Assembly: GCA_024277355.1 (NCBI GenBank)
Contig: JAJRVL010000009.1
Coordinates: 27,580-59,579 of the forward strand
Source of the DNA: an archaeon
GTDB lineage: Archaea; Iainarchaeota; Iainarchaeia; Iainarchaeales; 1-14-0-10-31-34
Direction: 5' to 3'
Length of the DNA: 32,000 bases
The notes under the pieces were generated by a model. The model did not search any database. It was not told the DNA's origin and was given only the letters and a program-made list of their open reading frames with translations. The position numbers and the translations under genes were made by a program. Positions 7,354 through 25,893 of the stretch are shown here, in pieces. Every line of letters starts with the position of its first letter. Within the stretch, counting starts at the first letter, position 1.

Positions 7354-7393
7354 ACTAAAAAATAAAAGAAAAAGGGAAATAAAAATTAACTAT

Positions 7394-7525: not shown

Positions 7526-7771
7526 TAATTCACCTGTATTAAAACGAAATAAAATCTAGTTTTAAAGTAGAATAAAACTTGACTGTAAAAGTCTTTAAAT
7601 AGTTTTGCATGGAATTCTTCCAAAAACTTTAATATTTAAATAGTAAAAGACCATTATTTTATTATGAACAATTCAATTGTTTTGTCTGAAAAGATTCCTG
7701 TTATTTATTCAATCATCAGACTAAACTATTGGTTTATGTTCAAGCAATTTCACTGACTGATTTGTGCTTTA

Positions 7772-7803
7772 TTTTTTTTTATTTTTTTTTTTTTTTTTTT
7801 TTT
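7772..7803. repeat. T9-A-T22 homopolymer tract bracketed by an 8-bp inverted repeat
   Basis: T9 at 7772-7780, A at 7781, T22 at 7782-7803. It is flanked by CTGACTGA (7753-7760) and TCAGTCAG (7811-7818), plus TGC/GCA (7765-7767 / 7804-7806). Confidence 0.8.
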
Positions 7804-8017
7804 GCATTGGTCAGTCAGACTATTTTTGAATTTAAATAATTAATAAAGCATTTTAATTGGAAGTGAAGTATATGAAGGAAAAAAAATGCAATGTAAATAT
7901 GCTTCAATCTGCAAAGATAAAAATTTAACGGTTTATTTATGTAATAATCAGTCTGAAGCATTAAAATACTGTACAACTTATGTAGAAATAAAAGGTTATA
8001 GGAAAATTAAATGAATT

Positions 8018-8545: not shown

Positions 8546-8595
8546 AGTCTTATTTTAGGTTAATGGTTTTAAAAAGCAGTATACTGTCTTTTAAT

Positions 8596-9858: not shown

Positions 9859-9965
9859 ACTATTATAATAGCAAGCTTTATTTAAAAAGCTTTCTATTAG
9901 AGTATAAAGCTTTTTTAATGGTTTTTGTTGTGGAATTTAATTAAAAAGCAGTAATTTAAATCAAT

Positions 9966-10023
9966 GTTACTATTTTCAGTAACGTTGTCGTTTTGGCTGT
10001 TTAGTTTTTTTAAAATACAAAAA
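9966..10023. repeat. duplicated intergenic module, copy 1: GTTACT-N6-AGTAAC palindrome plus a 47-nt perfect repeat
   Basis: Palindrome at 9966-9983. 9977-10023 (CAGTAACGTTGTCGTTTTGGCTGTTTAGTTTTTTTAAAATACAAAAA) is identical to 11416-11462. Confidence 0.85.
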
Positions 10024-10065
10024 AGTGTTTTTTTGCTTTTATAAAGGGTTATGTTATAGTATAAT

Positions 10066-11355
10066 TTATTTTGTTATCAGCCATTTCCATAAAGGAATAA
10101 ATGTTATTCCGTGTTCTTTTTTTTCTGTGTTTTTTGTTATTAAAGTAAGTTTTTTGGTTTTCTTTTTTTGTTTTTTTAATTCTTTTAATCCTTTAGTTTC
10201 CCTTTCTTTTATTTTATCAGTGAAAGAAACATTTATTCCCTGAAGAGAATTATCTTCGTTTTTTATTACAAAATCCACTTCGTTTTGGTTTGCCCAATAA
10301 TAAACTTGTTTGTTTTGTCTTTTTAGTTCTAAGAAAACAAGATTTTCAGTTAATTTTCCTTTGTCTTCAGAAAACTTGAATGCAACTGCGTTTCTTAAGC
10401 CATTATCTATTCCATATATTTTTGTTGGTCTTGTTTTTTGTTCTTTTATTGAATAAGAAAAATGATTTAATTCAAAAAACAAGAATGCTTCAAAAAAATG
10501 ACTTAAGTATTCTTTTAGTTGGTCATAAGATAAATCTGTTGCTTCTCTTAATTTTCTTAAGGATGTTTTCCCTGTAATGTTTGTTATTAAATATTTAGCA
10601 AGCTCTTTTGGTTTCTGGCTTTTAATATTAAATCTGTCAACTACATCTTTGAAAATTATGTCTTCAAAATAGTTTGTTAACACTAATCTTTTTTGTTTTT
10701 TTTCTTTAAAAAATATTTCAGGAAACCCGCCTTCATTAATATATTTTTCTAAAGCGTTTTGTATTTTTATTTTATCTTTATTTGAAACAATTCCTTTTTT
10801 TAGTAGTTTTTGTTCTGGTTTTATGCCTGAAAACTGCAGGAATTCCTTAAAACTTAAAGGCATTATTTCAAATGCAACTATTCTCCCTGTAAGCAGTGTT
10901 GAATATTCTTTTTTAAGTAAATGAGAAGAGCTTCCTGAAATAACAAATTTTGCTTCAGTTTTTAAATCATATTTTTTTCTAATCCATCTCTCCCATTTTT
11001 GTTTTTTTTGAACTTCGTCAAAGAAAATAAATGATTTTTTATCTGGATTTATTTTTTCTCTGTACTCTAAATAAATGTCTTCAAGTGAAGTTTCATTTAA
11101 TACTTCGTCTTCAAAATTCACTAAAAGAATGTTTTTTGAATCAACGCCACTTTCAATGAGTTTCTTAATCATTTGATACATTACAGTGCTTTTTCCTGAA
11201 CGCCTTACTCCTGTAATAACTGTTATTTCCTTTAAGTTTACAGTTTTAATTAATTCTTTATATTCAGGTCTTTCAATTCCTGATAATTCTTTCAGTTCTT
11301 CTTTTTTTTTAAACCACCACGGATTCCATTCACTTAAAATATCAATTAAAGTCAT
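10066..11355 (-). CDS. AAA-superfamily ATPase, COG1373 / DUF4143-type (paralog 2)
   Basis: Walker A GVRRSGKST and Walker B IFFDEVQKKQKWE. The track start at 11391 is TTG and would run through the upstream palindrome; the ATG at 11355 (MTLIDILSEWNPWW) is preferred. Confidence 0.75.
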   Translation of the reverse strand: MTLIDILSEWNPWWFKKKEELKELSGIERPEYKELIKTVNLKEITVITGVRRSGKSTVMYQMIKKLIESGVDSKNILLVNFEDEVLNETSLEDIYLEYREKINPDKKSFIFFDEVQKKQKWERWIRKKYDLKTEAKFVISGSSSHLLKKEYSTLLTGRIVAFEIMPLSFKEFLQFSGIKPEQKLLKKGIVSNKDKIKIQNALEKYINEGGFPEIFFKEKKQKRLVLTNYFEDIIFKDVVDRFNIKSQKPKELAKYLITNITGKTSLRKLREATDLSYDQLKEYLSHFFEAFLFFELNHFSYSIKEQKTRPTKIYGIDNGLRNAVAFKFSEDKGKLTENLVFLELKRQNKQVYYWANQNEVDFVIKNEDNSLQGINVSFTDKIKERETKGLKELKKQKKKTKKLTLITKNTEKKEHGITFIPLWKWLITK

Positions 11356-11371
11356 AAAAACACCAATACTT

Positions 11372-11389
11372 GTTACTAAAAATAGTAAC
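11372..11389. promoter_or_regulatory. GTTACT-N6-AGTAAC palindrome 17-34 nt upstream of the ATPase paralog-2 ATG
   Basis: GTTACTAAAAATAGTAAC. The same half-sites recur at 11405-11422 and 9966-9983. It sits where a TATA box for a leaderless or short-leader mRNA would lie. Confidence 0.4.
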
Positions 11390-11404
11390 AAAACCTTAAT
11401 AAAT

Positions 11405-11462
11405 GTTACTAAAAACAGTAACGTTGTCGTTTTGGCTGTTTAGTTTTTTTAAAATACAAAAA
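11405..11462. repeat. duplicated intergenic module, copy 2: palindrome plus a 47-nt perfect repeat
   Basis: Palindrome GTTACTAAAAACAGTAAC at 11405-11422. 11416-11462 is identical to 9977-10023. Confidence 0.85.
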
Positions 11463-11489
11463 CTTTTTTTGAATAATTTTTTTGAACTG

Positions 11490-11858
11490 TTATATGTATG
11501 TTTCTATTATCTCTTTAATTTTGTTTGCTCTGCGCTGGATTTGTTTGGTTGTTGAAATAGAAATATAAACTCCGTAATCTGCTTGGCTTTTATGGGCTAT
11601 TAAAAATTCGTATGCATTCTGGTATTTCTGGAAATCTTCTTCTAAAAACTTTGATAATTCTTTAAAATAAGTAGTGTCTGAATGTGGTTTGTGTTTTGGT
11701 ATTTTATTCAGGAATTTTTGGCATAATGTGTTGTGGTAGTTAATGGCTGCGTTGATAAACAAGTGTGCTGCTGTATGGTAGTTTTCCTGTTTAAATTGGT
11801 CTTCTGCAGCCTGAAATCTTTCATTTGCTAAGTCAAAATGTTGTTTGAATGTGCTCAA
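11490..11858 (-). CDS. HEPN-domain protein (partner of the adjacent nucleotidyltransferase)
   Basis: About 120-aa all-helical protein with HEPN-like layout (ERFQAAEDQF..., LIAHKSQADYG). It overlaps the upstream MNT gene by 26 nt. TTG start per the track. I did not see a canonical R-x4-6-H motif. Confidence 0.6.
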   Translation of the reverse strand: MSTFKQHFDLANERFQAAEDQFKQENYHTAAHLFINAAINYHNTLCQKFLNKIPKHKPHSDTTYFKELSKFLEEDFQKYQNAYEFLIAHKSQADYGVYISISTTKQIQRRANKIKEIIETYI

Positions 11859-12447
11859 TTAATCTCCTTCCTTTTATTATTTTTCCTTTTCTTAAAATGT
11901 TCTGGATAAACAAGTCTTTTTCAGTCCAGCGCAACTTAATTTCTTTTTTGTCCATGATTACAGGTGAAAACCTTATGCCTGTTTTAGTAGTTGCATTAAC
12001 AAATTCTTCAACAATTTTTTCTTCTAATTTACTGCTTTTTTTTTCTAAGCCGATTAAAATATCAAAGTCTGATTGATGCGAAAAATCTTTTCTGATGCGT
12101 GATCCAAAAGCAATCACTATCTTTATTTTAGAGTTTTTCAAGAGTTTCAAGGATTTAAGTGTTTTAAATAATGGTTTCTGGAAATCACTTGTTTTTTTAA
12201 AGATTTTTTTCAGTTCAGGAAGCAAATAAAATTTTTGGTTGATTTTGATTAATTTGTTTCTGCCTTGGTATTCAATTAACACTAATCCTGTTTTTTCCCA
12301 GTCTTTTATAATACCTGAAACAGTTGCTTTTGGTGTTCCTGTCATTCTCCCTAATTCTGAAATCGAAAAATGACCGGATTTATGTATGAACTTTTCCAGC
12401 ATTAAAATCTTTGACTTTGAATTCATTAATTGTTCCATTATCTGCAT
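11833..12447 (-). CDS. minimal nucleotidyltransferase (MNT) with an N-terminal winged-helix domain
   Basis: NTase signature AFGSRIRKDFSHQSDFDILI (GS-x9-11-DxD). N-terminal wHTH-like SISELGRMTGTPKATVSGIIKDWEKTGLV. The track start at 12525 is TTG; the ATG at 12447 (MQIMEQL) is more plausible, but the start is uncertain. Confidence 0.7.
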   Translation of the reverse strand: MQIMEQLMNSKSKILMLEKFIHKSGHFSISELGRMTGTPKATVSGIIKDWEKTGLVLIEYQGRNKLIKINQKFYLLPELKKIFKKTSDFQKPLFKTLKSLKLLKNSKIKIVIAFGSRIRKDFSHQSDFDILIGLEKKSSKLEEKIVEEFVNATTKTGIRFSPVIMDKKEIKLRWTEKDLFIQNILRKGKIIKGRRLIEHIQTTF

Positions 12448-12607
12448 TAAGACACCATTCAATAAACTGAACATATGTTCAGTATATAGAACATATTTTA
12501 AATGAATTGTCTTAATTTGCAGCAATCAGAATTTAATTTACTTTTGCTTTTCTTTAAATAAGTTTTTCTTAAATTAATATATTTAGAAAAGTTTAGCAGA
12601 TGAAATA

Positions 12608-13777
12608 ATGACTTTGTATTCTCATTCCAGAATTGAATCTTTTTTTCAGTGTCCTTTAAAATTTAAGTTTCAGTACATTGAAAAAATTAAAGTTCCTTTT
12701 CATCAAAGCATTGAAGCTTTTATGGGTTCAAGAGTGCATGAAACTTTTGAATATTTATATAAATTAGTTCAGCATACTAAAATTCCTTTACAGCAGGAAT
12801 TAATTGACTTTTATAAAAAAAAATGGAAACAAAACTGGAATAATAATATTGTTATTGTAAAACAAGGTTTAACTAAAGAAAATTATTTTAATTTAGGAAT
12901 TAAATGCATTAAAAATTATTATCAAAAAAATCATCCTTTTAATGATGGTTTAACTATTGGAATTGAAAAAAGAATTTTAATTGATTTAGATGGAACAGGT
13001 AAATATAAAGTTCAGGGTTTTATTGACCGTTTAGTTGAAAAAAAACCAGGTTTCTTTGAAATTCATGACTATAAAACTGTTTCTAATCTGCCTGACCAAA
13101 TAAAAGCAGAAGAAGACAGACAATTAGCTTTGTATGCTATTGGATTAGAACAAGAATTTAATGAAGTAAACGAAGTTGAATTAATCTGGCATTTTGTTGT
13201 TTTTGGAAAAACAGCTAAAAGCAAAAGAACTAAACAACAATTAACTGAATTAAAAAAAGAAACTATTTCCCGCATTAAAGAAATTGAATCCTGTAATAAA
13301 TTTAATTCAAATCCTTCTATTTTATGTAATTGGTGTAAATTTCAATGTATTTGCCCTGAATTTAAGCACCAAAAAGAAACAGAAAATCTTCCAGCAAACA
13401 AATATTTAAATGAAGCAGGAGTTGTTTTAGCAAACAAATTTATTGAATTAAAAAACAAGGAAACAGAAATTAAAACAGAATTGTCTTTAGTTAAAGAAGC
13501 TGTTATTGCTTTTGCAAAAGAAAAAAATTATTCAGTTATTAAAGGAAGCAACGGCAAACTTTCAATAACACAAACTAAATCCTTAAAATTACCAAAAAAA
13601 GACTCTAAGGAATATGAAAAACTTGAATTACTTTTACAAAAAATCAACGCCTTAAATGAAACAAGTTCTTTAGACCAAACAAAAATCAAAGAATTCTTAA
13701 AGAAAAAAGAAAACAAACAAATAGAAAAGCTTTTGGAGGAAAATGAAATGACGACGGTGAGGGTTGGGAAGAAGTAA
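12608..13777 (+). CDS. Cas4/RecB-like PD-(D/E)XK nuclease with a 4-Cys cluster and a Lys/Glu-rich C-terminal extension
   Basis: N-terminal Cys (FFQCPLKF), a nuclease core FIDRL...FEIHDYKT (D...E-x-K type) and a C-terminal CNWCKFQCICPE, which together give the Cas4/AddB Fe-S pattern C...CxxCxxxxxC. The last ~130 aa look like coiled coil. Confidence 0.7.
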   Translation: MTLYSHSRIESFFQCPLKFKFQYIEKIKVPFHQSIEAFMGSRVHETFEYLYKLVQHTKIPLQQELIDFYKKKWKQNWNNNIVIVKQGLTKENYFNLGIKCIKNYYQKNHPFNDGLTIGIEKRILIDLDGTGKYKVQGFIDRLVEKKPGFFEIHDYKTVSNLPDQIKAEEDRQLALYAIGLEQEFNEVNEVELIWHFVVFGKTAKSKRTKQQLTELKKETISRIKEIESCNKFNSNPSILCNWCKFQCICPEFKHQKETENLPANKYLNEAGVVLANKFIELKNKETEIKTELSLVKEAVIAFAKEKNYSVIKGSNGKLSITQTKSLKLPKKDSKEYEKLELLLQKINALNETSSLDQTKIKEFLKKKENKQIEKLLEENEMTTVRVGKK

Positions 13778-13880: not shown

Positions 13881-15851
13881 TTAGTTATTATTTTCTTCAA
13901 CATCATTAAATTTATTCAACAAATTTATTTTTTCAGAACCAATTTTTGTATTTTTTTCAATTAAATCAAGAATCTTTTCTGTTCTTTTTAATAAAAATCC
14001 TTCATAGTTTCTTTTGTTTACAAGAAGACTATACATTTCTTTATCAATTAAGTGAGTATTTAAAAATTCTTCAAAGTTTTTATTAGATTCGAATTCAGGG
14101 AAATATTCATCTGGGTTTTTTTTCTTTATTTCTTGATTTAATTCGCTACTAATAATTGCTATATTAGCAATATTATTTAATAAAAAATCGGCTTTTTCTT
14201 GACCTAATTCTTTTCTAAGGCTTTTTGCAGCATCTGAATTAAATGGGATTATGTGGTGTTTGTTATTTTTTGTATATGCTCCAAAATATTCCATTAAATT
14301 TATTTCAGAATTAACATTAAAATCTACAGGTTTTAAAGAATTTAATAACAAAATAAGAGAAGAATATAAATTATTTTGATTGTTGTATCCTGCATCAATT
14401 AAATATTTTTGATTGTATTCATAGTTTTTGTTAAATATTCCAAAATTTCTATTGTTTTTTATCTGTTCTACAAATGATTCTGATCCTTTATTAAATTCAT
14501 TCATGTCTGTTTCAATTCCTTGTAATTGGGCTCCTGGATATCTATTAAATATTAAAGTATTCCAAAACCATTTGTTAATTGATTCGAAGTAATTATTTTG
14601 ACTAAGTGCAGAATATTTGTTAGAACTTATTACATAAGTTAAAAAAGACAAAATTTTATTATCAGTGTATTTTACATCTAAAGATTTAATATTTAATTCA
14701 TTTGATAAATATTTCAATAATTGCTCAAAAAGTTTTCTAAATTCTAAAAGATTATCTTGAATATATTGTGAATTTAATTCATATATGTGATCTTTTTGAA
14801 GCCCGCTTTTTTTGAGATTATGTCTATTATGGATGATTGAAATTAATCTAAGAGTAGTTGTAGTATCAATATTATAATATGAATCGTTTTCGTAATTTAA
14901 AGAAATTTGAGGATCTAACTTTTCTGATTCTAAATAAGAGCGCCTGTAAAGAATCTTTTGGATTGCATTTTTTAGATTAAATGTTTTTTTATCATTTTTA
15001 TATATAATTGTTTTATATGTTTTTGCAACCATTATATCAAAAATATCAAGTTTTACATTTTGAGTATTTATTCTTTCAAAAATAGTTACTACTTTATCTA
15101 AATTGCTATCTTCAACAATTTGATGAATCTTATAAGACTTTATTATCTCTGTAAATTTTTCTAAGATTTTTTTATTTTCATCAAGAATTCTATTTTTTTT
15201 TTCAATAAAAATAATTGTATCTTCTTTATTTAAGTCTTCAGGAACTTCTTCAGTTATCTTTTTTCGTTCTTTTTCAATAATCTTATCTGGAAATTTATGT
15301 TTTTCATCAAATATTTGAGATAAATCTATAAATCTAAATGGATTAAGTTTATTTGTTTCTCTTAATTTTTTAATAGTTATTTTTTCGTTATTCATTTCAA
15401 TTTTCTGAGTTTCGCTAAGAAAAACATTTGTTTCAATATCGAAATAAATCTTGTAAGGTTTTGATTTTTTATTTTTAGAACGGTATAATTCTTTTCCTTT
15501 TAAAACACCATAAATTGTTGTCAACCTTTGTTGGCCATCTAAAATATAATATAATTCTTTTGAACTGTTATTATTTTCGCTTATTTCTTTATCTCCAACA
15601 TTCCGATAAGCTAAATTTTCTTTAGATTTCCATAACAATAAATTTCCAATAGTATATCCTTTGAAAATACTATCAAATAATAAAGTAAATTTTTCAATAT
15701 TCCAAACAAAATCTCTTTGAAATTCAGGAATAACCCAATGCCCTTCTTCAATTTTATTTAATATTTTTGAAATAGATATTGGAGGATAAAAGTCTTTATC
15801 TAGATTCTTTTCAATTCTACTGTGTTCTTGCATAATTTTTGATTTGTCCAT
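13881..15851 (-). CDS. GmrSD-like type IV restriction enzyme candidate (DUF262 N-terminal + DUF1524/His-Me-finger C-terminal)
   Basis: DUF262 motifs IPEFQRDFVW and YILDGQQRLTTI. C-terminal NNKHHIIPFNS...NNIANIAIISSELNQEI. The track ORF runs to 16028, but that extension overlaps the Zn-ribbon gene. The ATG at 15851 (MDKSKIMQEH) has GAGAGG upstream. Confidence 0.75.
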   Translation of the reverse strand: MDKSKIMQEHSRIEKNLDKDFYPPISISKILNKIEEGHWVIPEFQRDFVWNIEKFTLLFDSIFKGYTIGNLLLWKSKENLAYRNVGDKEISENNNSSKELYYILDGQQRLTTIYGVLKGKELYRSKNKKSKPYKIYFDIETNVFLSETQKIEMNNEKITIKKLRETNKLNPFRFIDLSQIFDEKHKFPDKIIEKERKKITEEVPEDLNKEDTIIFIEKKNRILDENKKILEKFTEIIKSYKIHQIVEDSNLDKVVTIFERINTQNVKLDIFDIMVAKTYKTIIYKNDKKTFNLKNAIQKILYRRSYLESEKLDPQISLNYENDSYYNIDTTTTLRLISIIHNRHNLKKSGLQKDHIYELNSQYIQDNLLEFRKLFEQLLKYLSNELNIKSLDVKYTDNKILSFLTYVISSNKYSALSQNNYFESINKWFWNTLIFNRYPGAQLQGIETDMNEFNKGSESFVEQIKNNRNFGIFNKNYEYNQKYLIDAGYNNQNNLYSSLILLLNSLKPVDFNVNSEINLMEYFGAYTKNNKHHIIPFNSDAAKSLRKELGQEKADFLLNNIANIAIISSELNQEIKKKNPDEYFPEFESNKNFEEFLNTHLIDKEMYSLLVNKRNYEGFLLKRTEKILDLIEKNTKIGSEKINLLNKFNDVEENNN

Positions 15852-15864
15852 TTTATAACGCCTC

Positions 15865-16092
15865 TCAATCCAAATCAGCTGGTTTGAATTTATATCCACA
15901 ATCTTTGCAAGTTCCTTCAACTTTTTCTTTTCTTCTGTCAGTTCTTGAACTAGAAATTCCAGTACTTCCCTGAACTCTATAAGTTTGAGATGATTCAGGA
16001 AACCATAAAACATCATTTTTTGTTCCACATTTTGGGCAATTTAAATCAATTTTCTCTGATTGCTGTCCTCTGGTAAATAATTCATAACTCAT
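15865..16092 (-). CDS. 75-aa zinc-ribbon miniprotein, function unknown
   Basis: CPKCG-x33-CKDCG gives four Cys in two knuckles. The stop is 13 nt before the GmrSD-like ATG, and the start is 22-31 nt after the upstream gene's stop. The track start at 16101 is GTG; an ATG lies at 16092. Confidence 0.55.
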   Translation of the reverse strand: MSYELFTRGQQSEKIDLNCPKCGTKNDVLWFPESSQTYRVQGSTGISSSRTDRRKEKVEGTCKDCGYKFKPADLD

Positions 16093-16123: not shown

Positions 16124-18307
16124 CTAAATAGTTTTTCGCAACTCCTGAGATGTGGGCTGAATGCCGTCAACAAGCTTGTCAAGCTTTTCCTTAATTAAAT
16201 AAAAATCAAAATAACCATTATTTACTCGCAAAGCATATTTGATAATTTTGTAGAATTTATTCCTGTTATTTTTCAATACATCTGGATTCGAACTTAAATA
16301 AGCAGTAAGTTTTAGTAAATTGATTCTATCTATACAAGACACCCATATTTTTGATTTAATTTTAAATGCTTTATTTTTAGTTTTTTTTAATTGTTCTGAA
16401 AGAGATTCTTTAGCTTTATCAAAATCATCTTTGTCAGTCTCATAGGTTAAAAAAACATAATATTTTAATCCGCCGTGCTTCTTTACTTTAAAATTTCTTT
16501 CAAAATTATTCATATATTTTATATCTTTAGATATTTCTGTAGGAAATTTTATTCTCATTTCCTTTTTTTCTTTTATGTAACTACTTAACTTTGTCTTGGT
16601 ATATCTTTTTGCATCCCATAAAACAAATTGTGTAGTTCCCTGCCCTTCAAATGCAAATGCCCCATCCGCAAGTTTTGGACCGCCAAGTTTTTGATTATGT
16701 GGAAACATAAAATTTAATATTGCATAAATACTGTTTTCAAATTCTTCGGGGGTAGGGGGACTGGGAGCTTTTACAATAGTTATGGCGGCTCTGAAAGATT
16801 CATACATTAGATCGGAACTTTTTTCTATTGCTTCTTGAATGAGTGAAATTATTTTATCACTTTTTTTTCCTGCAAGCCAATCAATAAATTGTAATCCTTC
16901 AACATTACTTAATCCAACCATGTTTGAATTGAGCTCTCCTTTTAATTTTATTATTATTAACGGAATTCCTAATAGTTTTAATTTTTCAAATTTTTCTTTT
17001 CCAATACTGTTCTTACTAAAATATAAATAGAAATATTTTCCTCCTTTTTCAATTCTAATTGCAAAATCGTTTTTGTTTAAATTAAGTGCTTTTGCCAAAT
17101 ATTTAGTTGTTTTTATTTTCTCTTTTTTTAGCAAATTAATTGTTTGAAATTCAATCTGTTTTTTATTTGGTTTAATAGAATAAGAAATAGTAAAAGATCT
17201 TCTGGCTGGGTTTCCACATTCACAAATTTTTTGCTTTATAGGTTTAATTACATCACAGGAAGGATTAGAACACCAATATAATTTATTCTGTTTTTTCCTT
17301 AGAAGTTTGACTTTTATCATTTCATTAAGTTTTGTGCCTACTTGAGGAAGATTAAAATAATATGGCTCAACATCTTGACGATAAATCACATTTGTTAATA
17401 TTTCATTAAAATCTAAATTGTCAAATATTATTTGCCCTTTATTAATTATATTCCTAAATTCTTTTGGCAAAGCATATCTTGAACCAAAATAAGTAATTTT
17501 TTTTCCTAATTTTGATTTATTAAACATTAATTTGGCTTGTCCAGAATTCCCAATAGACGTCTTTACTTGGTTTAAGGTATCTAAAGAAAAAGTAACAATG
17601 CCATCTTTTTCCCAATCTAAAGCTTGTTGCAAAGCATTTCCAGTCTTAGATTTAATTATTACTGACTCGCCAGAACCTGGAGCCTTTGTTCTTTTTAGAT
17701 CAATAAGGTAAAATTTTTGGTTTACTTTATTGAAAATATTCTTTATCTTCTCTTTATCTATTTTGATTGGTTCGTGTTTTGGCAACCATATAATATTTTT
17801 CACTTTTAGCCACCATAGAATCAATTCCTTTATTTTGTGGCTTATATTAAAAAATTCAACAATAATGTTTTCTTTATCAAAAACAATACAAAAAAAATTT
17901 TTACTCAAATTTTTATAACTTTTAATTGTTCTTGTAGTTAAACCAGTTCCAGGTTCCACGTATCCAATGATTACAATTATTTTTCTACCATGTTTTTTTG
18001 CATAAATGACGGCAAGTTCTCTTTTACTTTTAAATAATTTTTTATTATAACTCAAAACAATTCTTTTGAACAAATTTTTGATTTTCTTTTCTCCTGTAAG
18101 AATTTTATTACATTGAATAGTTTCAGTGCTATTCCCCTTAGAAATTTCTTTTAAACAATAAGCTGCAATAATGGTTTTTTGATTTATTTTTCCATCTTTT
18201 GAAATTAATTCTAGTTCTGTCTTATAATCTTCTTTAAATTGATCTAGATCATCACCATAAGTTCTCTGCAATCCGATATAAGAAAAGCTGTCAGTTAATT
18301 TCGCCAT
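16124..18307 (-). CDS. 727-aa multidomain protein: unknown N-terminal ~500 aa with an internal Zn ribbon, plus a C-terminal FokI-type PD-(D/E)XK cleavage domain
   Basis: C-terminal EFENSIYAILNFMFPHNQKLGGPKLADGAFAFEGQGTTQFVLWDAKRY aligns with the FokI cleavage domain as I recall it (ILEMKVMEFFMKVYGYRGKHLGGSRKPDGAIYTVGSPIDYGVIVDTKAY). The D-x16-D-x-K spacing is identical (D codons at 16664-16666 and 16613-16615). Zn ribbon CSNPSC-x11-CEC at about 17.21-17.28 kb. Confidence 0.65.
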   Translation of the reverse strand: MAKLTDSFSYIGLQRTYGDDLDQFKEDYKTELELISKDGKINQKTIIAAYCLKEISKGNSTETIQCNKILTGEKKIKNLFKRIVLSYNKKLFKSKRELAVIYAKKHGRKIIVIIGYVEPGTGLTTRTIKSYKNLSKNFFCIVFDKENIIVEFFNISHKIKELILWWLKVKNIIWLPKHEPIKIDKEKIKNIFNKVNQKFYLIDLKRTKAPGSGESVIIKSKTGNALQQALDWEKDGIVTFSLDTLNQVKTSIGNSGQAKLMFNKSKLGKKITYFGSRYALPKEFRNIINKGQIIFDNLDFNEILTNVIYRQDVEPYYFNLPQVGTKLNEMIKVKLLRKKQNKLYWCSNPSCDVIKPIKQKICECGNPARRSFTISYSIKPNKKQIEFQTINLLKKEKIKTTKYLAKALNLNKNDFAIRIEKGGKYFYLYFSKNSIGKEKFEKLKLLGIPLIIIKLKGELNSNMVGLSNVEGLQFIDWLAGKKSDKIISLIQEAIEKSSDLMYESFRAAITIVKAPSPPTPEEFENSIYAILNFMFPHNQKLGGPKLADGAFAFEGQGTTQFVLWDAKRYTKTKLSSYIKEKKEMRIKFPTEISKDIKYMNNFERNFKVKKHGGLKYYVFLTYETDKDDFDKAKESLSEQLKKTKNKAFKIKSKIWVSCIDRINLLKLTAYLSSNPDVLKNNRNKFYKIIKYALRVNNGYFDFYLIKEKLDKLVDGIQPTSQELRKTI

Positions 18308-18352: not shown

Positions 18353-19495
18353 TCAATTGACAAATCCTCCTTTAAACGCTTTCTGCATCAAACAATCAAA
18401 TAAAATATTAATTTCTTCTGTTGATTGGCTTTGTTTGTATTTTAAAGTCATAAGAGAATCAAAAAACAATGAAAATTTTTTTTGTAAATCCAAAGGAGGA
18501 GTTACAATCTCAAGGTTCCTTAAAATTGTAAGATTAAGCCCGCTCCTAAAACCATCTCCTGTAATATTTCTTAGTTCGTTATATCTTGTTTTTAAATTGA
18601 CGTGCAAATATTCAGAAGTAATTTTAGAATAATCTGGAGAAATGGATGCAACGGACTGATTACTTGTGGTGTTCACTTTTAGAATTCCTGTAGTGCCCCT
18701 TGTTTTTCCTTGCCCATTTAATGCAATTACCACATCTCCTATTTTATACAATTTAGCATTAGAATTCTTTAAACCTAATTTTGTAATTTTATTAGGAACA
18801 TTAATTATGTAATCTGATTTAATATTTCCTGATTTCATCCAATTTATTGTTCCTTTTTCAAAATATTCTATAAATTTCTTATTAGGGGTTCCCCCCATAT
18901 CAAGTTTAGCAATATCTTTTAATTTTAGTTTAGGCCATTGTTTCTCATTTTTAGCAGGCCCTCCAAATATTTCATGAAAGACATTTTTTAAAATTTTATT
19001 TGTTTCTTCATTTACTTGATTTCTTTTTTCTTTCAGCTTTTCAGCTTGTTCAAGAATAGAAACAATTTGTTTTTGAATGGGCATTGGAGGAACAATTAAT
19101 TTTTTTCTTTTTAGAAACCGATAATGTCTACTATACCCTCCAGATTCAAGAGGCAAATATTTTAGTTGATAATACATAAATTTAGCGTTCAATAAATCCT
19201 TTTTAGGGAGTAAAACTTTAGTGCCATCAGCTCCAACACAGAAGCTGAAATCAGCATATTTAATTCTTTTAGTATGGTCTCCAAATATTACTACAGGATT
19301 GCCATAAGGATATAATTTACTTTTATCATCACAATACCCTGCAATCTGTTTTTCCCCTTGATCTATTATTGGAAATTTTCCTTTTTCTTTAAATTCTGAC
19401 TTTTTGATTTTTATAGCAGATGGAACGCTATCAGTCTCTAAGCAATCTTTGAATTCTTTTTCTTCCCATTTTTTTGACAATTTTTGATTATTCAT
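18353..19495 (-). CDS. hsdS: type I restriction-modification specificity subunit HsdS
   Basis: Two target-recognition halves are separated by a conserved helical spacer (QKQIVSILEQAEKLKEKRNQVNEETNKILKNVFHEIFG), with a matching C-terminal helix (LQKKFSLFFDSL...LFDCLMQKAFKG). The ATG at 19495 (MNNQKLSKKWEEKEF) has GGAGA 6 nt upstream; the track start at 19540 is less likely. Confidence 0.85.
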   Translation of the reverse strand: MNNQKLSKKWEEKEFKDCLETDSVPSAIKIKKSEFKEKGKFPIIDQGEKQIAGYCDDKSKLYPYGNPVVIFGDHTKRIKYADFSFCVGADGTKVLLPKKDLLNAKFMYYQLKYLPLESGGYSRHYRFLKRKKLIVPPMPIQKQIVSILEQAEKLKEKRNQVNEETNKILKNVFHEIFGGPAKNEKQWPKLKLKDIAKLDMGGTPNKKFIEYFEKGTINWMKSGNIKSDYIINVPNKITKLGLKNSNAKLYKIGDVVIALNGQGKTRGTTGILKVNTTSNQSVASISPDYSKITSEYLHVNLKTRYNELRNITGDGFRSGLNLTILRNLEIVTPPLDLQKKFSLFFDSLMTLKYKQSQSTEEINILFDCLMQKAFKGGFVN

Positions 19496-19976
19496 TATTA
19501 TTCTCCTTAAAGTTTTTTTTCTCATATTCCAGAATTGCATCTATTGTGAAAGGCATAGTAGTAGTTCTTTTCCCATATTTAGGGGAAACTGATTCTCTAT
19601 TTATTTGCTGTTGAAATCCAACTATTTGTGACTTGAATAGTTGAGCTTCTTCAAAAGGAAGATTTTTGTCTACAAATTTTTTTAAGTATTCAATGCCCTT
19701 TTCAATTTTCTCTTTTTGACTAAGTTCTTTTCCAATATTTTTTGTTTCTTCTTTCTCACAGTAATGTATATGGAACTGTTTGTGAAGAGAGTGTTCTTTT
19801 GGGTGTTTACTCTCTTCTAGTCTAATAATTGGTTTGTGATTTCTATTTTCCTGAAGTTCATCAAGAAGAATAACAAAATCCTCTTCTCCAGAATTGCTTT
19901 TTTCTATGTTAAATCGTAACTGATATTTTTTAGTAGAGGTGTTTATTACAAATTCTCTTTTATTTTTATTAATCAT
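19488..19976 (-). CDS. hypothetical 162-aa protein embedded between hsdM and hsdS
   Basis: ORF with no motif I recognise (Lys/Glu/His-rich, HKQFHIHYCEKEE). Its last codons overlap the hsdS start (ATGAATAA at 19488-19495). Confidence 0.55.
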   Translation of the reverse strand: MINKNKREFVINTSTKKYQLRFNIEKSNSGEEDFVILLDELQENRNHKPIIRLEESKHPKEHSLHKQFHIHYCEKEETKNIGKELSQKEKIEKGIEYLKKFVDKNLPFEEAQLFKSQIVGFQQQINRESVSPKYGKRTTTMPFTIDAILEYEKKNFKENNNE

Positions 19977-20005
19977 TTTATTATTCCCTTAAATTCTTGA
20001 AAATT

Positions 20006-20665
20006 TCATTTTTGTTCCACGCCTATAAGTTTAATATATATTTCGTTAATGTTGTAATTATCTTTTTTTTGTAATTTAAAAGATATTTGATATGGCCTAA
20101 AATTATCTCCACTAAAAAGTAAATTTAACTCATATTTTCCAGGCAATAATGTTTCAGGTATCCCTATAGGAATTGAATGGTACTTTTCAAAGTGAATTTT
20201 TTTATCCGTATTAACAGCTACTGCCACATCAATGAATTCTTGCTCTCCAATACCAATTGATAGCCTTTCCGCGTTTCGTTGATCAAGTATTAACTCTGGT
20301 CTACTGGCCCACTTTAATGGAAAGCCTTCGTAATCATTTAATACTTCACTTTCCTTAACAATGTTAAATATTTGACATCTACAGTTGATTGCAGGGTTTT
20401 TTCCATTATTTTTAACTTTCATTCTTAGAAATGTTCCTAATGGTTTTATCTCGTTAACAACTGAAGCACTCTTAAGTTTTAAATTTCCAATGGCAATATT
20501 TTCTTTTCTAAATGGAACTTTTTCTTTATACTCGAATTCAAGTTTCGGTTTTTTCCAGAATGGAAGTATAAAATCTTTCAAAAGGGCAATTAATATTGCA
20601 ACAAATGAGATTATTATTGCCCAGATTTCTATTTGAATACCAACTATTAATATTTTTTCAGCCAT
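20006..20665 (-). CDS. hypothetical 219-aa single-pass membrane protein embedded between hsdM and hsdS
   Basis: N-terminal TM helix ILIVGIQIEIWAIIISFVAILIALL followed by a ~185-aa soluble domain with no recognisable motif. The ATG at 20665 directly abuts the hsdM stop TAG (20666-20668). Confidence 0.6.
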   Translation of the reverse strand: MAEKILIVGIQIEIWAIIISFVAILIALLKDFILPFWKKPKLEFEYKEKVPFRKENIAIGNLKLKSASVVNEIKPLGTFLRMKVKNNGKNPAINCRCQIFNIVKESEVLNDYEGFPLKWASRPELILDQRNAERLSIGIGEQEFIDVAVAVNTDKKIHFEKYHSIPIGIPETLLPGKYELNLLFSGDNFRPYQISFKLQKKDNYNINEIYIKLIGVEQK

Positions 20666-22156
20666 CTAAACAAGCCTCTTCAATTCTTCTAATTGATTAG
20701 TTATCTCTTTTTCAAGCTTCAATACTTTTTCAATTATTTTTTTTGGTGGTTCGTATTTTATTTCTTCAAATTTAATTTCTTGATAGCGTGAAATGCTTAG
20801 ATTGTATTCATTTTCTTTTATTTTTTTGAATGGAACTTTAATACTGTTTTCTGAAACTTCTTTTGACTTAAATTTTTTTGTTATGTCTGGAATGTCTCCT
20901 TTCCCATCCTTAAATTGTCTTTTATCGTCTAAACTAAAACCATCATCTTTCATTTCATAAAACCAAACGGAATCTGTTTGGCCTCCTTTAATAAAAATTA
21001 GAACTGCTGTTCCTACTCCAGAATAAGGTTTGAATACCCCTGAAGGCATTGAAATAACTGCTTCTAACTGGCATTTTTCTAATAAAAGTTTTCTGGCTGA
21101 CTTGTGTGCATTACTGCTTCCAAACAACACTCCATTTGGAACAATTATAGCTGCTCTTCCCCCTTGTTCAAGCAAATTATAAAACAATTCAATAAACAAT
21201 AATTCTGTTTTAGTAGTTCCTACTTTGAATATATCATTAATGTCGCTTTTGTCAATTGAACCAGTAAAAGGAGGATTAGCTAACACTACATCAAATTTTT
21301 TGCTTAAATCAAAATTTTTGGATAAAGAGTCAGCGTATTTAATGTTTGGGTTTTCAATTCCATGCAAAATCATATTCATTAAAGCAATTCTAACCATTGT
21401 AGTGTCAACATCAAAACCAAAAAAAGTATTCCGCTTTAAAAAACTCCAAGCTTTCTTGTTAGTGCCAATTTTATCTCCAATCAAATTATGAGGAGTTCCA
21501 TCTTCATCATATTTAATTGAATCCTTTGAAGTATTTTTTTCTAAAATATGATAATAACAATTTATTAGAAAACCAGAAGTTCCACATGCAGGATCGCAAA
21601 CAGTTTCTCCAATTTTAGGATTAACTAACTCAACCATCATTCTAATAATATGTCTTGGAGTTCTAAACTGTCCGTTTTTTCCAGAAGTTTGAATTTCTTT
21701 CAATAAGTATTCATAAATGTCTCCTAAAGTGTCTCCATTAGCAGTTAAAGCAGAATCATATAATTCATCAATAATGCTGACTGCTTCCTGCAACAAAGAA
21801 GGTTTTGGAATAATAAAAACAGCATCCTTCATGTTTTCAGAAAAAAGAGTGTCTCCTCCTCTCCTAATATTTTTAATGAAAGGAAAAACTTTATCTCTTA
21901 CGTGTTGAATCATTTGCTCTGAACTATAATGCTTCCAATTACTCCAAAGGCAATCTTCATTTCCTTCAAACACTGACTCAAATTTTTCTTTCCTTGCAAT
22001 AGCTTGATTTTTGTGCATTTCATCCAAGTCTTCTAATCTCTTCATGAAAATTAAATAAGAAATTTGTTCAATAGCAGTCAAAGGGTTAGCTATTCCTCCA
22101 GCCCAAAATTTATCCCATAACTGGCTAATTTTAGATTTAAGTTCAGCGTTTAACAT
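20666..22156 (-). CDS. hsdM: type I restriction-modification N6-adenine DNA methyltransferase HsdM
   Basis: SAM motif VCDPACGTSGFL and catalytic motif VLANPPFTGS, with an HsdM-type N-terminal helical domain. GGAGGC lies 8 nt upstream of the ATG. Confidence 0.9.
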   Translation of the reverse strand: MLNAELKSKISQLWDKFWAGGIANPLTAIEQISYLIFMKRLEDLDEMHKNQAIARKEKFESVFEGNEDCLWSNWKHYSSEQMIQHVRDKVFPFIKNIRRGGDTLFSENMKDAVFIIPKPSLLQEAVSIIDELYDSALTANGDTLGDIYEYLLKEIQTSGKNGQFRTPRHIIRMMVELVNPKIGETVCDPACGTSGFLINCYYHILEKNTSKDSIKYDEDGTPHNLIGDKIGTNKKAWSFLKRNTFFGFDVDTTMVRIALMNMILHGIENPNIKYADSLSKNFDLSKKFDVVLANPPFTGSIDKSDINDIFKVGTTKTELLFIELFYNLLEQGGRAAIIVPNGVLFGSSNAHKSARKLLLEKCQLEAVISMPSGVFKPYSGVGTAVLIFIKGGQTDSVWFYEMKDDGFSLDDKRQFKDGKGDIPDITKKFKSKEVSENSIKVPFKKIKENEYNLSISRYQEIKFEEIKYEPPKKIIEKVLKLEKEITNQLEELKRLV

Positions 22157-22539
22157 TATTTTTTGCCTCCTTTAATTTTCTTTATATTAGTAGGAACAAG
22201 AACAGAGTCTTTTCTTGTTTTTTTAATGTAAGAATTTCTTGTATTCAAAACAGAATTCATTTGACTTAAAAGGTTTTCAAGAAACAAAGGAGTTAACTTT
22301 TCTCCTACACTAATTTTTTCTCCGTCATCAAACTCAACACTCCAAGAAAAACAATCATTATTTTTGTCGTAAACAAATTTATTTACTCCAGCTTTATTTA
22401 ATGGAATTAATTTAGAAACATTGCTTTCAATTAAATTTTTAATAAAAAGAGAAGTAGTTATTTTTTCTTTTTCACAGTAATGCTTTAATTGAGAAAAAGT
22501 TAAGCGATCAATTTTAGAGCTAACAGTTATGTAATCCAT
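22156..22539 (-). CDS. 127-aa protein with an N-terminal ribbon-helix-helix (CopG-like) fold; candidate regulator of the hsdM block
   Basis: ITVSSKIDRLTFSQLKHYCEKEKITTSLFIKNLIES fits a strand-helix-helix pattern. The stop overlaps the hsdM ATG (TAATG). The C-terminal ~80 aa are unknown. Confidence 0.5.
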   Translation of the reverse strand: MDYITVSSKIDRLTFSQLKHYCEKEKITTSLFIKNLIESNVSKLIPLNKAGVNKFVYDKNNDCFSWSVEFDDGEKISVGEKLTPLFLENLLSQMNSVLNTRNSYIKKTRKDSVLVPTNIKKIKGGKK

Positions 22540-22560
22540 GAAAGAACTTTATAAAAAACA

Positions 22561-22595
22561 ATTTATAAATGAAACCTGTCTATTCAGGTATACCT
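22561..22595 (-). promoter_or_regulatory. candidate promoter/operator: TATA-like ATTTATAAAT plus nested palindromes ACCTG-N6-CAGGT / AGGTATACCT
   Basis: ATTTATAAAT (22561-22570) is centred about 26 nt upstream of the RHH ATG (22539), consistent with a leaderless mRNA. ACCTG (22574-22578) / CAGGT (22585-22589) and the perfect 10-bp palindrome AGGTATACCT (22586-22595) lie just upstream. Confidence 0.4.
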
Positions 22596-22596
22596 C

Positions 22597-25410
22597 TTAT
22601 TTGCTTTTTGTAGTTTCTTTTTCCAAACCATTGCATAAAGCCACAATTTCTTTTAATTCAGAATCATTAAACAATGGCTTTGGAGCCTTTCCAATATTAG
22701 TAAAAGGTTCAGCAAACAAATCAGAATACTCAATATGATCCTTTTTAGCAAAAACCGTTTGAAGAGTTCGCATAAACAACAATTTATTTGAATTCAATTC
22801 AATCTGCTTTTCAACCATAAACTTCCTAAAAGCTTCAGCAACCATTTTTTCAGAATCAGGAAACTCATACAACCCCAAAACATTCTTAATGAATTCAACT
22901 AAAGCACCATTACTTTGACGATAAGCTTTCTGCAAAACTTCTTCAGTAATATACAATTCAGGGCTATTAAGGATTTCCTCAAGCTTAACCAAATCTTTTT
23001 CATCTAATACTTCATTTTTTTTAATTTTCTTAATTGTAGGGTGAGTTTCAGCTAACTCTTTAATTCTCTTTTCAACTAAATCCTTATACTCTTTAACATA
23101 AATTTCTTTTCCTTCAGGACCAAACTCAATTTTTTCTCTTGATTCAGCTTCAACAACATCATCCATGTCAATAACAATTGGTTCTCTTGGATTCTTTCTC
23201 TTTAACTTCATTAATTCAGCAAACGCTTCTTGTAACTTAAAAGCATCAGAAACAGAAACCTTCTCCCAAAAATCTTTTCTTTTAGCTTTATTCAAAAAAG
23301 TTTCTTTATCTTTTACTTTCTTTAAAGTAACAGGCAAACACTGCAAATCAAAACCAATTCTCTCCTGCAATCTTTCCAATTTCTTTTTATCTTTCTCTAA
23401 AACAGCTAACTTTAATTGCTCTGTCTTCAAAATAAAAGAATAAACATCATAATTAACATCAGTCTTAAACTTCATCAAAGGAGAAATTTTCTTCATTAAA
23501 AAATCAAAATGTTTTAATCCAACCTGACTCCAAAAATCTTTATGCAAAGCTTTCTCTATGTTTTCAGTATGCTCTCTAATAGAAATAGAATCCATCGGCA
23601 AAGATTTAATTTCTTTATAAATTTCACTCCTAACTATTTCAACTTCTTCCTTCATTCCGTTCTTTTCAAATAACTCCAACAAATTCAGCTTTAACTTAAA
23701 TATTTTAACTGGCAAAGCCTCACTTGCCTTTGATTCCCTTCCTTCAGGTTCAACTTTAAACCGCTTAAAATTACCCCAAAAATCCAAAATCTTAAAATAC
23801 TCTTTATTCATTTGCTTACATAAAACATTATCGCTACCACAATCAGGAGAACACTTTCTTGTACCACGACCAATCATCTGCCAAAACCTAATCTTAGAAA
23901 AAATTGGTTTAGCAAAAACAAGATTTTGAATAGGCTCAACATCCACGCCAGTAGAAAGCATATCAACAGTAATGGCAATTCTAGGCCACTTCTCATACTC
24001 AAATTCTTTCAATAATTCATCTCTTCTTTCAATCTGATAATCAATAATTTGAGCTAACTTCCCTTTATACTGGGGATAAAGTTTATTGAAAGCCTCCCAA
24101 ATTCTTTTAGCATGAACATGAGTTAAAGCAAAAACAATAGTCTTGCCAGGCAAAGTTCCAGTTTCATCATATTCAGCTTCAGCCATAAACTCTCTAACTA
24201 AAGCTTCATTAGTGCCAACAGGGGCAACCTCTTTTTCAATCTTTGAACCATCCCAATTTAAATCATCCAAAGTCAAACCTTCTTCTAACAAACGCTTTCT
24301 TTCACTTGCAGGAATATCTTCAGAAGTAATACCTTTAACTTGAAAATGAGTTTGAGCATTATAAACTTCAAATGGAATCAAATGTCCTTCTTCAACTGCT
24401 GGCCAATATTCATACAAAAAAGTTGGAACACCAAACTCACACTCAAAAAACCTAAAAGTATCTCTATCAACTAAATCAGCAGGAGTAGCTGTTAAGCCAA
24501 CTTGAATAGAATCAAAATAAGTGAAAATTTCCTTAAACTTATTAAAAATACTTCTATGGGATTCATCAGAAATAATTAAATCAAAATAACCAGGAGAAAT
24601 ACTTTGATAACAAGAAATCAAAGTCTGCAAAGTAGAAACATATAATCGAGCAGACTTATCAATTTCTCCAGAGAAAATAGTTGAGCGAGATTCCTCAGGC
24701 AAAAACTTCTTGAAACCTTTATTTAAAGCTTGATCCCTTAAAGCCCTTCTATCAGTCAAAAACAAAACCTTCTTAATCCAATGAGCCTTCAAAAGAACAT
24801 CAATCAAAGCCACAGAAGTTCGAGTTTTACCAGTGCCAGTGGCCATAACTAACAAAAACTTTTTTTTACCTTGTTCCAATCCTTCAAGAATTCTTTTAAC
24901 TGCTTCAATCTGATAAGGCCTATCAATAATATCTTGCCTAATCTCCATTACAGACAATGGTTTCTTATTTTCATTCAAAAACCTAACTTTCTCTAAATCA
25001 TCTTGAGAATAAAAACCCCTAATCTGCTTTGGAACGCCATCAACTTTATTCCAAAACCAAATTTCAACCCCGTTAGTTAAAAAAATAAAAACAGGTTTTC
25101 TAGTTTGCTTTTCAATGTCATCAGCATAATCTTGAGCTTGTTTTTGACCAACAATAGGATCTCTAGAAAATTTTTTGGCTTCAATAACTGCAAGTGGATT
25201 ATTTTGTTTATCTAAAAGAAGATAATCTGCAAATTGACTTTCTTCTTTATTATTCCAAGTATCTTTATTGATTTTATAATCTTGAACTTTAAAATTAGAT
25301 TGTTTAGTATCAACTTCTTCAATAATCATTGAATTATCAAATTTCCAACCTTGTTCTTTAAGAGCTACATCAATTTTTTCCTTTCTAGTTCTAAACTCGT
25401 TTAAATCCAT
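22597..25410 (-). CDS. hsdR: type I restriction enzyme R subunit HsdR (nuclease + SF2 helicase/translocase)
   Basis: N-terminal PD-(D/E)XK ADYLLLDKQNNPLAVIEAKK. Helicase motif I LVMATGTGKTRT, motif II IISDESHRS, motif III GLTATP, motif VI QMIGRGTR. Long helical C-terminal region. Confidence 0.9.
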   Translation of the reverse strand: MDLNEFRTRKEKIDVALKEQGWKFDNSMIIEEVDTKQSNFKVQDYKINKDTWNNKEESQFADYLLLDKQNNPLAVIEAKKFSRDPIVGQKQAQDYADDIEKQTRKPVFIFLTNGVEIWFWNKVDGVPKQIRGFYSQDDLEKVRFLNENKKPLSVMEIRQDIIDRPYQIEAVKRILEGLEQGKKKFLLVMATGTGKTRTSVALIDVLLKAHWIKKVLFLTDRRALRDQALNKGFKKFLPEESRSTIFSGEIDKSARLYVSTLQTLISCYQSISPGYFDLIISDESHRSIFNKFKEIFTYFDSIQVGLTATPADLVDRDTFRFFECEFGVPTFLYEYWPAVEEGHLIPFEVYNAQTHFQVKGITSEDIPASERKRLLEEGLTLDDLNWDGSKIEKEVAPVGTNEALVREFMAEAEYDETGTLPGKTIVFALTHVHAKRIWEAFNKLYPQYKGKLAQIIDYQIERRDELLKEFEYEKWPRIAITVDMLSTGVDVEPIQNLVFAKPIFSKIRFWQMIGRGTRKCSPDCGSDNVLCKQMNKEYFKILDFWGNFKRFKVEPEGRESKASEALPVKIFKLKLNLLELFEKNGMKEEVEIVRSEIYKEIKSLPMDSISIREHTENIEKALHKDFWSQVGLKHFDFLMKKISPLMKFKTDVNYDVYSFILKTEQLKLAVLEKDKKKLERLQERIGFDLQCLPVTLKKVKDKETFLNKAKRKDFWEKVSVSDAFKLQEAFAELMKLKRKNPREPIVIDMDDVVEAESREKIEFGPEGKEIYVKEYKDLVEKRIKELAETHPTIKKIKKNEVLDEKDLVKLEEILNSPELYITEEVLQKAYRQSNGALVEFIKNVLGLYEFPDSEKMVAEAFRKFMVEKQIELNSNKLLFMRTLQTVFAKKDHIEYSDLFAEPFTNIGKAPKPLFNDSELKEIVALCNGLEKETTKSK

Positions 25411-25497: not shown

Positions 25498-25893
25498 ATG
25501 GATTACCTGAAGAGAAAAAATATTCCTGCAAAAATACAACTTGAAGTTTGGAATAGAGATAACTGGCATTGCCGTTACTGTGACAAACCAATTTTTTATA
25601 CTCTTTCATTAAAAATTCTTGATAAAATAAATCCAAAACATTCTTACTTTCATCCAAACGGTAAAACTGGAGAAATACTGCCTTTATTTATTTATTCTTG
25701 GGCAAGTGTTGACCATGTTAAACCATTCTCAAAACAAGGATCTGACGAAAAAGAGAACTATGTTTCTGCCTGTTGGGAATGCAATATGAAATATGGAAAC
25801 ATGGAAGTTGGACAAGGAAAGCCAGAACCAAAAGGAATAATTGAGAGTAATTGGGATGGGTTTTATGGATTGTATTTTAAATTGAAAAAATAA
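25498..25893 (+). CDS. HNH endonuclease-domain protein (131 aa)
   Basis: CRYCDKPI ... DHVKPFSKQGSDEKENYVSACWECNMKYGN, matching the CxxC...DH..P...N...CxxCN HNH pattern. Confidence 0.75.
   Translation: MDYLKRKNIPAKIQLEVWNRDNWHCRYCDKPIFYTLSLKILDKINPKHSYFHPNGKTGEILPLFIYSWASVDHVKPFSKQGSDEKENYVSACWECNMKYGNMEVGQGKPEPKGIIESNWDGFYGLYFKLKK

Follow-up and report, generated by a model that had tools for sequence, protein, structure and literature searches.

The window analyzed here, 32,000 nucleotides of an archaeal contig (JAJRVL010000009.1, assembly GCA_024277355.1), carries on its minus strand a gene for a multidomain protein of 727 amino acids (aa), hereafter the target, that has no counterpart among described families. 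Its C-terminal ~200 aa are well supported as a FokI-type PD-(D/E)XK nuclease, and its N-terminal ~300 aa are modeled as a DNA-binding fold of the RdgC/RexA/IML3/CHL4 type. The protein may well be a stand-alone, single-polypeptide defense nuclease, in which a clamp would dimerize on DNA and pair two FokI-type domains; this reading is put forward tentatively. An earlier note on this DNA had outlined the open reading frame (ORF), now confirmed to be intact from ATG to TAG (Table 1), and had offered three explanations for it: a Type IIS-like enzyme protected by Type I methylation, a modification-dependent nuclease, or a new sensor-nuclease fusion. Its interpretation is partly supported, and the third alternative is the one that fits best.

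The FokI-type nuclease domain

The C-terminus is regarded as FokI-type because BLASTP, family conservation, hhalign and predicted structure agree, which upholds the assignment made in the earlier note. The segment quoted there is found at residues 523-569, with the LGG-x3-ADGA block and the D548-x16-D565-x-K567 spacing as it had described them, and the two Asp codons that it had named are indeed those of D548 and D565 (Table 1).

Regarding the sequence comparisons, BLASTP of the target against the FokI cleavage domain, in a numbering that reproduces D450, D467 and K469, gave 11 identities over 33 positions, with a pairwise E value of 0.013, along the LGG...DGA...D-x-K block, and both BLASTP and hhalign align D548, D565 and K567 to the three FokI residues. 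Across the 16 family members, no substitution occurs at D548, G549, W564, D565, A566 or K567, and at least 90% of them retain E524; the family is predicted to hold a complete E...D...D-x-K site of the PD-(D/E)XK type. The family C-terminal profile aligned with FokI in hhalign with a score of 23.6 over 114 colinear columns, catalytic residues in register, and the alignment runs on through the 'YYLFVTS'/'FLFVSGH' strands and the next helix-strand-helix. This score was higher than that of each of 200 shuffled FokI sequences (mean 12.6, standard deviation 2.2, maximum 20.4); five unrelated control proteins scored 9-21, each over at most 22 columns.

As for the structure, the AlphaFold2 (AF2) model of the target, built from a 16-sequence alignment, had a mean predicted local distance difference test score (pLDDT) of 81.9 and a predicted template modeling score (pTM) of 0.65, compared to a pLDDT of 33 for single-sequence AF2. 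In the Protein Data Bank (PDB), Foldseek matched this model to FokI (2fok_A, E = 1.2e-4; 1fok_A, E = 2.6e-4), to Nt.BspD6I (3e-3) and to HindIII (0.14); the alignments to full-length FokI covered 400-505 columns, with residue ranges not reported, and the sequence identity in the structural alignments to FokI-like enzymes was ~13%. Judged by its sequences, the family is too diverged to belong to any existing sequence model: none in Pfam, PADLOC, NCBIfam or PHROGs matches the target protein, and Pfam at E ≤ 1 gave no match for any of the 16 members.

The N-terminal half and its predicted RdgC-like fold

The earlier note had found no motif that it could place in the N-terminal ~500 aa; this stands as far as sequence families are concerned, none of which match, and does not hold for structure, the AF2 model presenting a recognizable RdgC-like fold. 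Among PDB entries, E. coli RdgC (2owl_B, E = 8.4e-5, probability 1.00, 329 columns) ranks first for the model, ahead of CENP-N/Chl4 chains (E from 2e-3 to 0.1), and weak RnlA matches occur as well; a RexA structure is absent from the top 50 matches. Among the viral structures of BFVD, phage RdgC-like proteins match as well ('Exonuclease', 3e-4; 'Recombination-associated protein', 1e-2). The RdgC-like part is placed in the N-terminal half because the nuclease fills residues 520-727 and RdgC has 303 aa; the secondary-structure layout puts it at about residues 40-335, and the pLDDT over residues 1-335 is mostly 80-90.

RdgC, lambda RexA, IML3 and CHL4 have one fold, and they are obligate dimers with non-specific DNA binding; the ring of RdgC has a basic pore that is believed to be threaded by DNA, and in the Rex system of phage exclusion it is RexA that binds DNA (PMC11077077). 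The guess in the earlier note, that the N-terminal part governs recruitment or dimerization, gains support from this class of dimeric folds (PMC11077077), to which the model would assign it.

Between this half and the nuclease domain, the target contains a zinc ribbon, an α/β middle domain and a long connecting helix (Table 1). The ribbon had been described as CxxxxC-x11-CxC; the four-Cys ribbon is real, and the longer spacer is of 10 residues, C346-x4-C351-x10-C362-x-C364. A regular expression retrieved the full set of Cys from 11 of the 12 members with coverage here; the twelfth, P0011, also has the four, at a longer spacing according to the alignment. The middle domain carries the conserved motif G-x-P-x3-(I/L)N-x-(K/R)GE; that it could be a degenerate copy of the nuclease domain was considered and rejected (hhalign E = 0.26). 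A weak hhalign similarity (E = 0.008, 67 columns) links residues 245-312 (17372-17575) to residues 414-483 (16859-17068); it is not robust, and its origin might be an RdgC-type subdomain repeated within the protein or a shared composition.

The target aligns over its full length with 11 relatives of 670-780 aa, and the conservation is uneven. Mean pairwise identity across the family is ~20-24% in the N-terminal half and 43% in the nuclease core (residues 520-660), which is the most conserved part, residues 1-335 being the least conserved.

Rarity and distribution of the family

When 1.84 billion cluster representatives were scanned exhaustively with HMMER, 21 of them matched the family; such a scan was required, as a word-indexed homologue search returned the query itself or nothing, K/I/N-rich words probably swamping the candidates. 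Relatives were recovered at about 16 independent loci, all with a guanine-cytosine (GC) content of ~30%; two loci bear organism names (a Woesearchaeota metagenome-assembled genome, MAG, and an 'uncultured archaeon'), and a scan of viral contigs gave no relatives. Thus far, the family is rare, previously undescribed and confined to low-GC, apparently archaeal sequence. Several of its database entries are fragments or degraded copies, and the combination of rarity and degraded fragments is a pattern typical of defense genes. In the full-text literature, no paper joined RdgC and FokI in a relevant sense and none dealt with a defense nuclease of RdgC fold.

Proposed mechanism

A single FokI-type domain cuts one strand, a second domain being needed for a double-strand break, and the FokI nuclease is kept inactive until DNA binding occurs. 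A clamp of two protomers is proposed for the target because RdgC-fold proteins dimerize on DNA and FokI-type domains must pair. Before DNA binding, the nuclease would probably be held inactive, as in FokI; two protomers would then close their RdgC-like halves around the DNA duplex, in the manner of RdgC, and this closure would juxtapose the two nuclease domains, each acting on one strand, to yield a double-strand break. The cue that separates self from non-self would not be a sequence plus its methylation; accessibility, DNA ends or structures, or modification state would be more likely candidates, and access or structure (ends, replication or recombination intermediates) is favored because the known members of the fold bind non-specifically.

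In its boldest form, the proposal describes an immune nuclease of archaea that consists of one protein and would constitute a new class: a sensor of the RexA/RdgC fold would close as a dimer on accessible invader DNA (ends, replication or recombination intermediates) and assemble the FokI-type dimer, so that discrimination would depend on DNA structure and not on sequence or modification. This specific version is considered unlikely as it stands.

Several observations weigh against the clamp-nuclease reading. On the N-terminal side, the hhalign comparison of the family profile with E. coli RdgC gave E = 0.33 over 15 columns, with no sequence signal, and the same is true of the middle and C-terminal profiles; the Pfam RdgC model is matched by neither the target nor the 16 members. 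Against RdgC and FokI, the template modeling scores (TM-scores) reach no more than 0.2-0.34 (0.29-0.34 for RdgC), which is low, the chains being multidomain; in addition, the fold assignments come from a single AF2 model built on 16 sequences, and the RdgC-matching part of the target was placed from the domain order, as the Foldseek output gives no residue ranges. On the nuclease side, phmmer (HMMER) and family-profile searches of PDB sequences retrieved only noise and never FokI, and the Pfam FokI families have no match to the target or to any of the 16 members. Dimerization around DNA is purely inferred, by analogy with the known proteins of this fold. Finally, the three closest family members are all near a Type I system, and a functional link to it may exist in this sub-clade.

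Neighboring genes and alternative explanations

The target gene starts 45 nt past the TGA of hsdS, on the same strand, exactly as the earlier note had it, and the distance invites two explanations based on the Type I restriction-modification (R-M) system. According to the first, the protein is a Type IIS-like, sequence-specific enzyme, with the host protected by the neighboring HsdMS or by a methylase encoded in another part of the genome. The same hsd arrangement occurs at the P0002 locus, whose homologue is 43% identical, and in L002 a distance of 2.4 kb separates a truncated copy from a related Type I system; moreover, the FokI alignments of the Foldseek search are longer than the cleavage domain alone. 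However, these three loci, all of the closest members, are the only ones with Type I adjacency among about 16 independent loci, and at six loci both flanks are visible and neither has a methyltransferase (L009, L010, L012, L014, L015 and L017, the last one viewed over 10 kb per side). Methylases next to two other members, Dcm at L004 and an MmeI-type IIG enzyme at L013, are of unrelated kinds, the Pfam models of the FokI recognition domains are unmatched, and the bipartite site of a Type I enzyme is unlikely, we infer, to extend over all the sites of another enzyme. Hence, the Type IIS-like alternative of the earlier note is disfavored and regarded as very unlikely. Its remark that the protein has no cognate methylase is instead borne out, both by the six methylase-free loci and by the window, where, of the 20 ORFs scanned, HsdM alone has a methyltransferase domain (the ORFs at 15-728, 30584-31414 and 31404-31907 being outside the scan); in the target protein itself there is no (D/N/S)PP(Y/F/W) methylase motif.

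In the second explanation, HsdMS or HsdR would recruit the target, which would serve this Type I family as an accessory effector. Each of the three closest members has related hsd genes less than 2.5 kb away, and HsdM of the window and of L002 are 59% identical. Against this, the L002 copy is a C-terminal remnant of 185 aa, probably decayed: it begins inside the nuclease domain, lacks the helix of the conserved Glu, overlaps the end of the gene for a CCA-adding enzyme, and has three unrelated genes between itself and hsdR. Around the more distant full-length members no hsd genes are present, and the Type I system already possesses a complete HsdR, nuclease and motor included. Such a role appears the least probable of those considered, and the upstream operon is an independent neighbor in the same island.

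The main rival is a Type IV modification-dependent enzyme, whose N-terminal half would read a modified base or backbone while the FokI-type domain cuts nearby. This possibility, also listed in the earlier note, agrees with the failure to find a cognate methylase across the family loci and with the N-terminal half being the fastest-evolving part of the protein; Type IV-type genes adjoin members at three loci (GmrSD_N in the window, Mrr in L013, GmrSD-HNH in L006), and the order hsdRMS, target, GmrSD recalls the immigration-control region of E. coli, as is generally known. Nonetheless, co-location with Type IV genes would be displayed by any gene of a defense island, and no known modified-base reader was detected: SRA, PUA/EVE/ASCH, YTH, Mrr_N/winged-helix (wH), SBD and GmrS-type domains were sought in Pfam, PADLOC, NCBIfam and the top 50 Foldseek matches. 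What was detected is the RdgC-type fold, whose known members show non-specific DNA binding (PMC11077077). On balance, a Type IV activity is rather improbable. As for the co-occurrence with hsdMS or GmrSD, which the earlier note had proposed to check, hsd genes are found near the three closest members only, and GmrSD-type genes in the window and in L006.

A role outside defense was also weighed, namely a recombination, repair or mobile-element nuclease that the RdgC-like module would steer to replication or recombination intermediates, on behalf of the host or of an integrated element. RdgC itself is recombination-associated (PMC11077077), and several homologues adjoin integrases, a D5 primase or a protein-primed family-B DNA polymerase (PolB). 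Conversely, the distribution is extremely patchy and rare, fragments and pseudogene-like copies occur, the neighbors in the window are overwhelmingly defense genes, and the all-against-all BLAST of the flanks revealed no conserved synteny with replication or repair genes; this alternative is judged clearly unlikely, more so than the Type IV one.

Returning to the reading of a stand-alone defense nuclease, the gene is a self-contained unit that travels in defense and mobile islands, because its neighbors are varied (Table 1), methylase-free loci exist, and the BLAST of the flanking ORFs across loci identified no conserved neighbor. A small gene of 111-113 aa was examined as a conserved partner and rejected, being confined to one lineage (L003, L010 and L011).

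Two side observations concern the loci of the relatives. The DUF2779 proteins of L004 and L006 are homologous to each other, and the Cas4-like/DUF2779 proteins near homologues could be a loose recurrent association or a mere co-residence in islands. Upstream of the homologue, L004 also has genes for a protein-primed PolB (684-2504) and for a Dcm-type C5 methylase with a convergent 281-aa ORF (7251-9049), which hints at a Type II R-M system borne by a mobile element.

Comparison with known systems

The target shares with the group of FokI, Nt.BspD6I and N.BstNBI the C-terminal cleavage fold, as predicted by Foldseek on the model, the D-x16-D-x-K arrangement, and the modular order of DNA-binding part, linker helix and C-terminal nuclease; the need for two nuclease domains per double-strand break is, by analogy, probably common to all. 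It differs in having no Pfam FokI match, no cognate methyltransferase and an inserted zinc ribbon, and its N-terminal half best matches RdgC, not the winged-helix D1-D3 recognition module of FokI. In its workings the target would resemble a modular nuclease in the style of FokI; with neither a cognate methylase nor the FokI recognition module detected, it does not qualify as a Type IIS system, nor as a member of any family defined by sequence.

RdgC and lambda RexA have the fold that is predicted for the N-terminal ~300 aa of the target, with no sequence similarity to it. These proteins have no nuclease, RexA working with the separate membrane protein RexB, whereas in the target the RdgC-type fold would be fused in one chain with a zinc ribbon, an α/β domain and a nuclease. 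The Type IV enzymes (Mrr, the MspJI family and wH fusions) resemble the target for being single polypeptides with no methylase, with an N-terminal DNA-binding part and a C-terminal PD-(D/E)XK domain, and for their location in defense islands; the difference is that a known modification-reader domain was not detected in the target.

The nearest published case is that of RexA, which has the fold in a phage-exclusion protein with no nuclease (PMC11077077). What appears to be new here, on the strength of the model, is an RdgC-like DNA-binding module on a stand-alone restriction or defense nuclease, in an architecture that is rare and undescribed.

Genomic context in the window

The window is archaeal, as its 16S-tRNA(Ala)-23S operon (864-6011) matches archaeal Rfam models, and the GC content outside the rRNA genes is ~25%. 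The target belongs to a defense island that extends from ~8.6 to 27 kb, between the housekeeping genes next to the archaeal rRNA operon and a tRNA-Glu (28261-28336), and that is composed, in order, of two AAA_14-DUF4143 ATPases, a HEPN/nucleotidyltransferase pair, a Cas4-like protein, a GmrSD_N protein, the target, the Type I R-M operon and an HNH endonuclease. Genes of UbiA-type prenyltransferases are located on both outer sides of the island.

The 122-aa HEPN and the 230-aa helix-turn-helix (HTH) nucleotidyltransferase are a toxin-antitoxin pair of the HEPN/MNT type. Regarding the 715-aa GmrSD_N protein downstream of the target, family scans recognized neither a DUF1524 nor an HNH nuclease half; its matches in PADLOC are the candidates HEC-05 and PDC-M55C, and its C-terminus gives a weak Phage_integrase match. 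A version of this GmrSD-like gene that starts further upstream and includes a zinc ribbon was rejected, as a stop codon closes that frame.

The 127-aa ORF between hsdR and hsdM has counterparts in the same place in L002 (128 aa, 30% identity) and at the P0002 locus (133 aa, similar in size), and it may be an unrecognized accessory of this Type I lineage. The two ORFs between hsdM and hsdS are paralleled by other inserts of no recognized family at the equivalent place, one of 228 aa at the P0002 locus and one of 446 aa, between hsdS and hsdM, in L002.

Table 1. Features of the target gene, of its surroundings in the window and of the loci of its relatives (positions are those of the window, except for loci marked L, which have their own numbering)
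Feature	Position	Strand	Remarks
Whole target gene, 727-aa multidomain nuclease	16124..18307	(-)	ATG 18305-18307, TAG 16124-16126, frame uninterrupted
N-terminal helical lead-in and α/β region, RdgC/RexA/IML3/CHL4-type fold in the model	17303..18307 (residues 1-335)	(-)	Boundaries approximate
β-hairpin with Cys4 zinc ribbon	17165..17302 (residues 336-381)	(-)	Cys cluster 17216-17272
α/β middle domain with conserved motif	16862..17164 (residues 382-482)	(-)	AF2 secondary structure and family consensus
Long connecting helix, from DNA-binding half to nuclease	16751..16861 (residues 483-519)	(-)	AF2 helix 483-513
FokI-type PD-(D/E)XK cleavage domain	16127..16750 (residues 520-727)	(-)	BLASTP, family alignment, hhalign, Foldseek
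Predicted catalytic residues	16607..16738	(-)	E524 16736-16738, D548 16664-16666, D565 16613-16615, K567 16607-16609; codons verified
Two tandem AAA_14-DUF4143 ATPases, HEPN, HTH-nucleotidyltransferase	8596-12525	(-)	420 and 441 aa, 122 aa, 230 aa (PADLOC PDC-M05A)
Cas4-like PD-(D/E)XK protein (PDDEXK_1/DUF2800)	12608-13777	(+)	2.3 kb from target
GmrSD_N (DUF262)-type protein	13881..16028	(-)	715 aa, downstream of target, outside unit
Type I R-M operon	18353..25410	(-)	Upstream of target, outside unit
hsdS	18353-19540	(-)
ORFs between hsdM and hsdS	19488-20665	(-)	219 aa and 162 aa, no family match
hsdM	20666-22156	(-)
ORF between hsdR and hsdM	22156-22539	(-)	127 aa, no family match
hsdR	22597-25410	(-)	Complete HsdR with own nuclease and motor
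Small HNH endonuclease	25498-25893	(+)	131 aa, divergent from hsdR
ORF at far island edge	25926-27149	(-)	407 aa, no family match
P0002 locus			hsdR, 133-aa ORF, hsdM, 228-aa ORF, hsdS, 113-aa ORF, homologue (43% identical)
L002, C-terminal-only copy	7572-8129		185 aa, 51% identical to window protein, 2.4 kb from hsdR
L001			PLD-SNF2 helicase
L004	4867-6336 (DUF2779)		Dcm, ORF of no assigned function; DUF2779 and protein-primed PolB further upstream
L005			Integrase, Fic
L006	879-2318 (DUF2779)		DUF2779, GmrSD-HNH
L013			MmeI-type IIG enzyme, Mrr, homologue, then integrase and resolvase
L014			DUF6602, NYN
L015			D5 primase-helicase
L017			RadC, CARF/Csa3-like regulator, UvrD-PD-(D/E)XK protein

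Implications

Current defense-finder pipelines miss this family because no Pfam, PADLOC, NCBIfam or PHROG model covers it. Its source is low-GC archaea, whose immune repertoire has hardly been explored; one relative belongs to a Woesearchaeota MAG. Its cleavage domain is a highly diverged natural version of the FokI type, of possible interest for nuclease engineering.

In conclusion, the protein would add to the modular defense nucleases a case in which a ring-forming, non-specific clamp fold replaces the reader of sequence or modification, and it offers a testable handle on what proteins of the RdgC/RexA fold sense in phage exclusion. If the structure-sensing reading were true, the unexplained DNA-binding component of lambda Rex would be linked to a nucleolytic relative.

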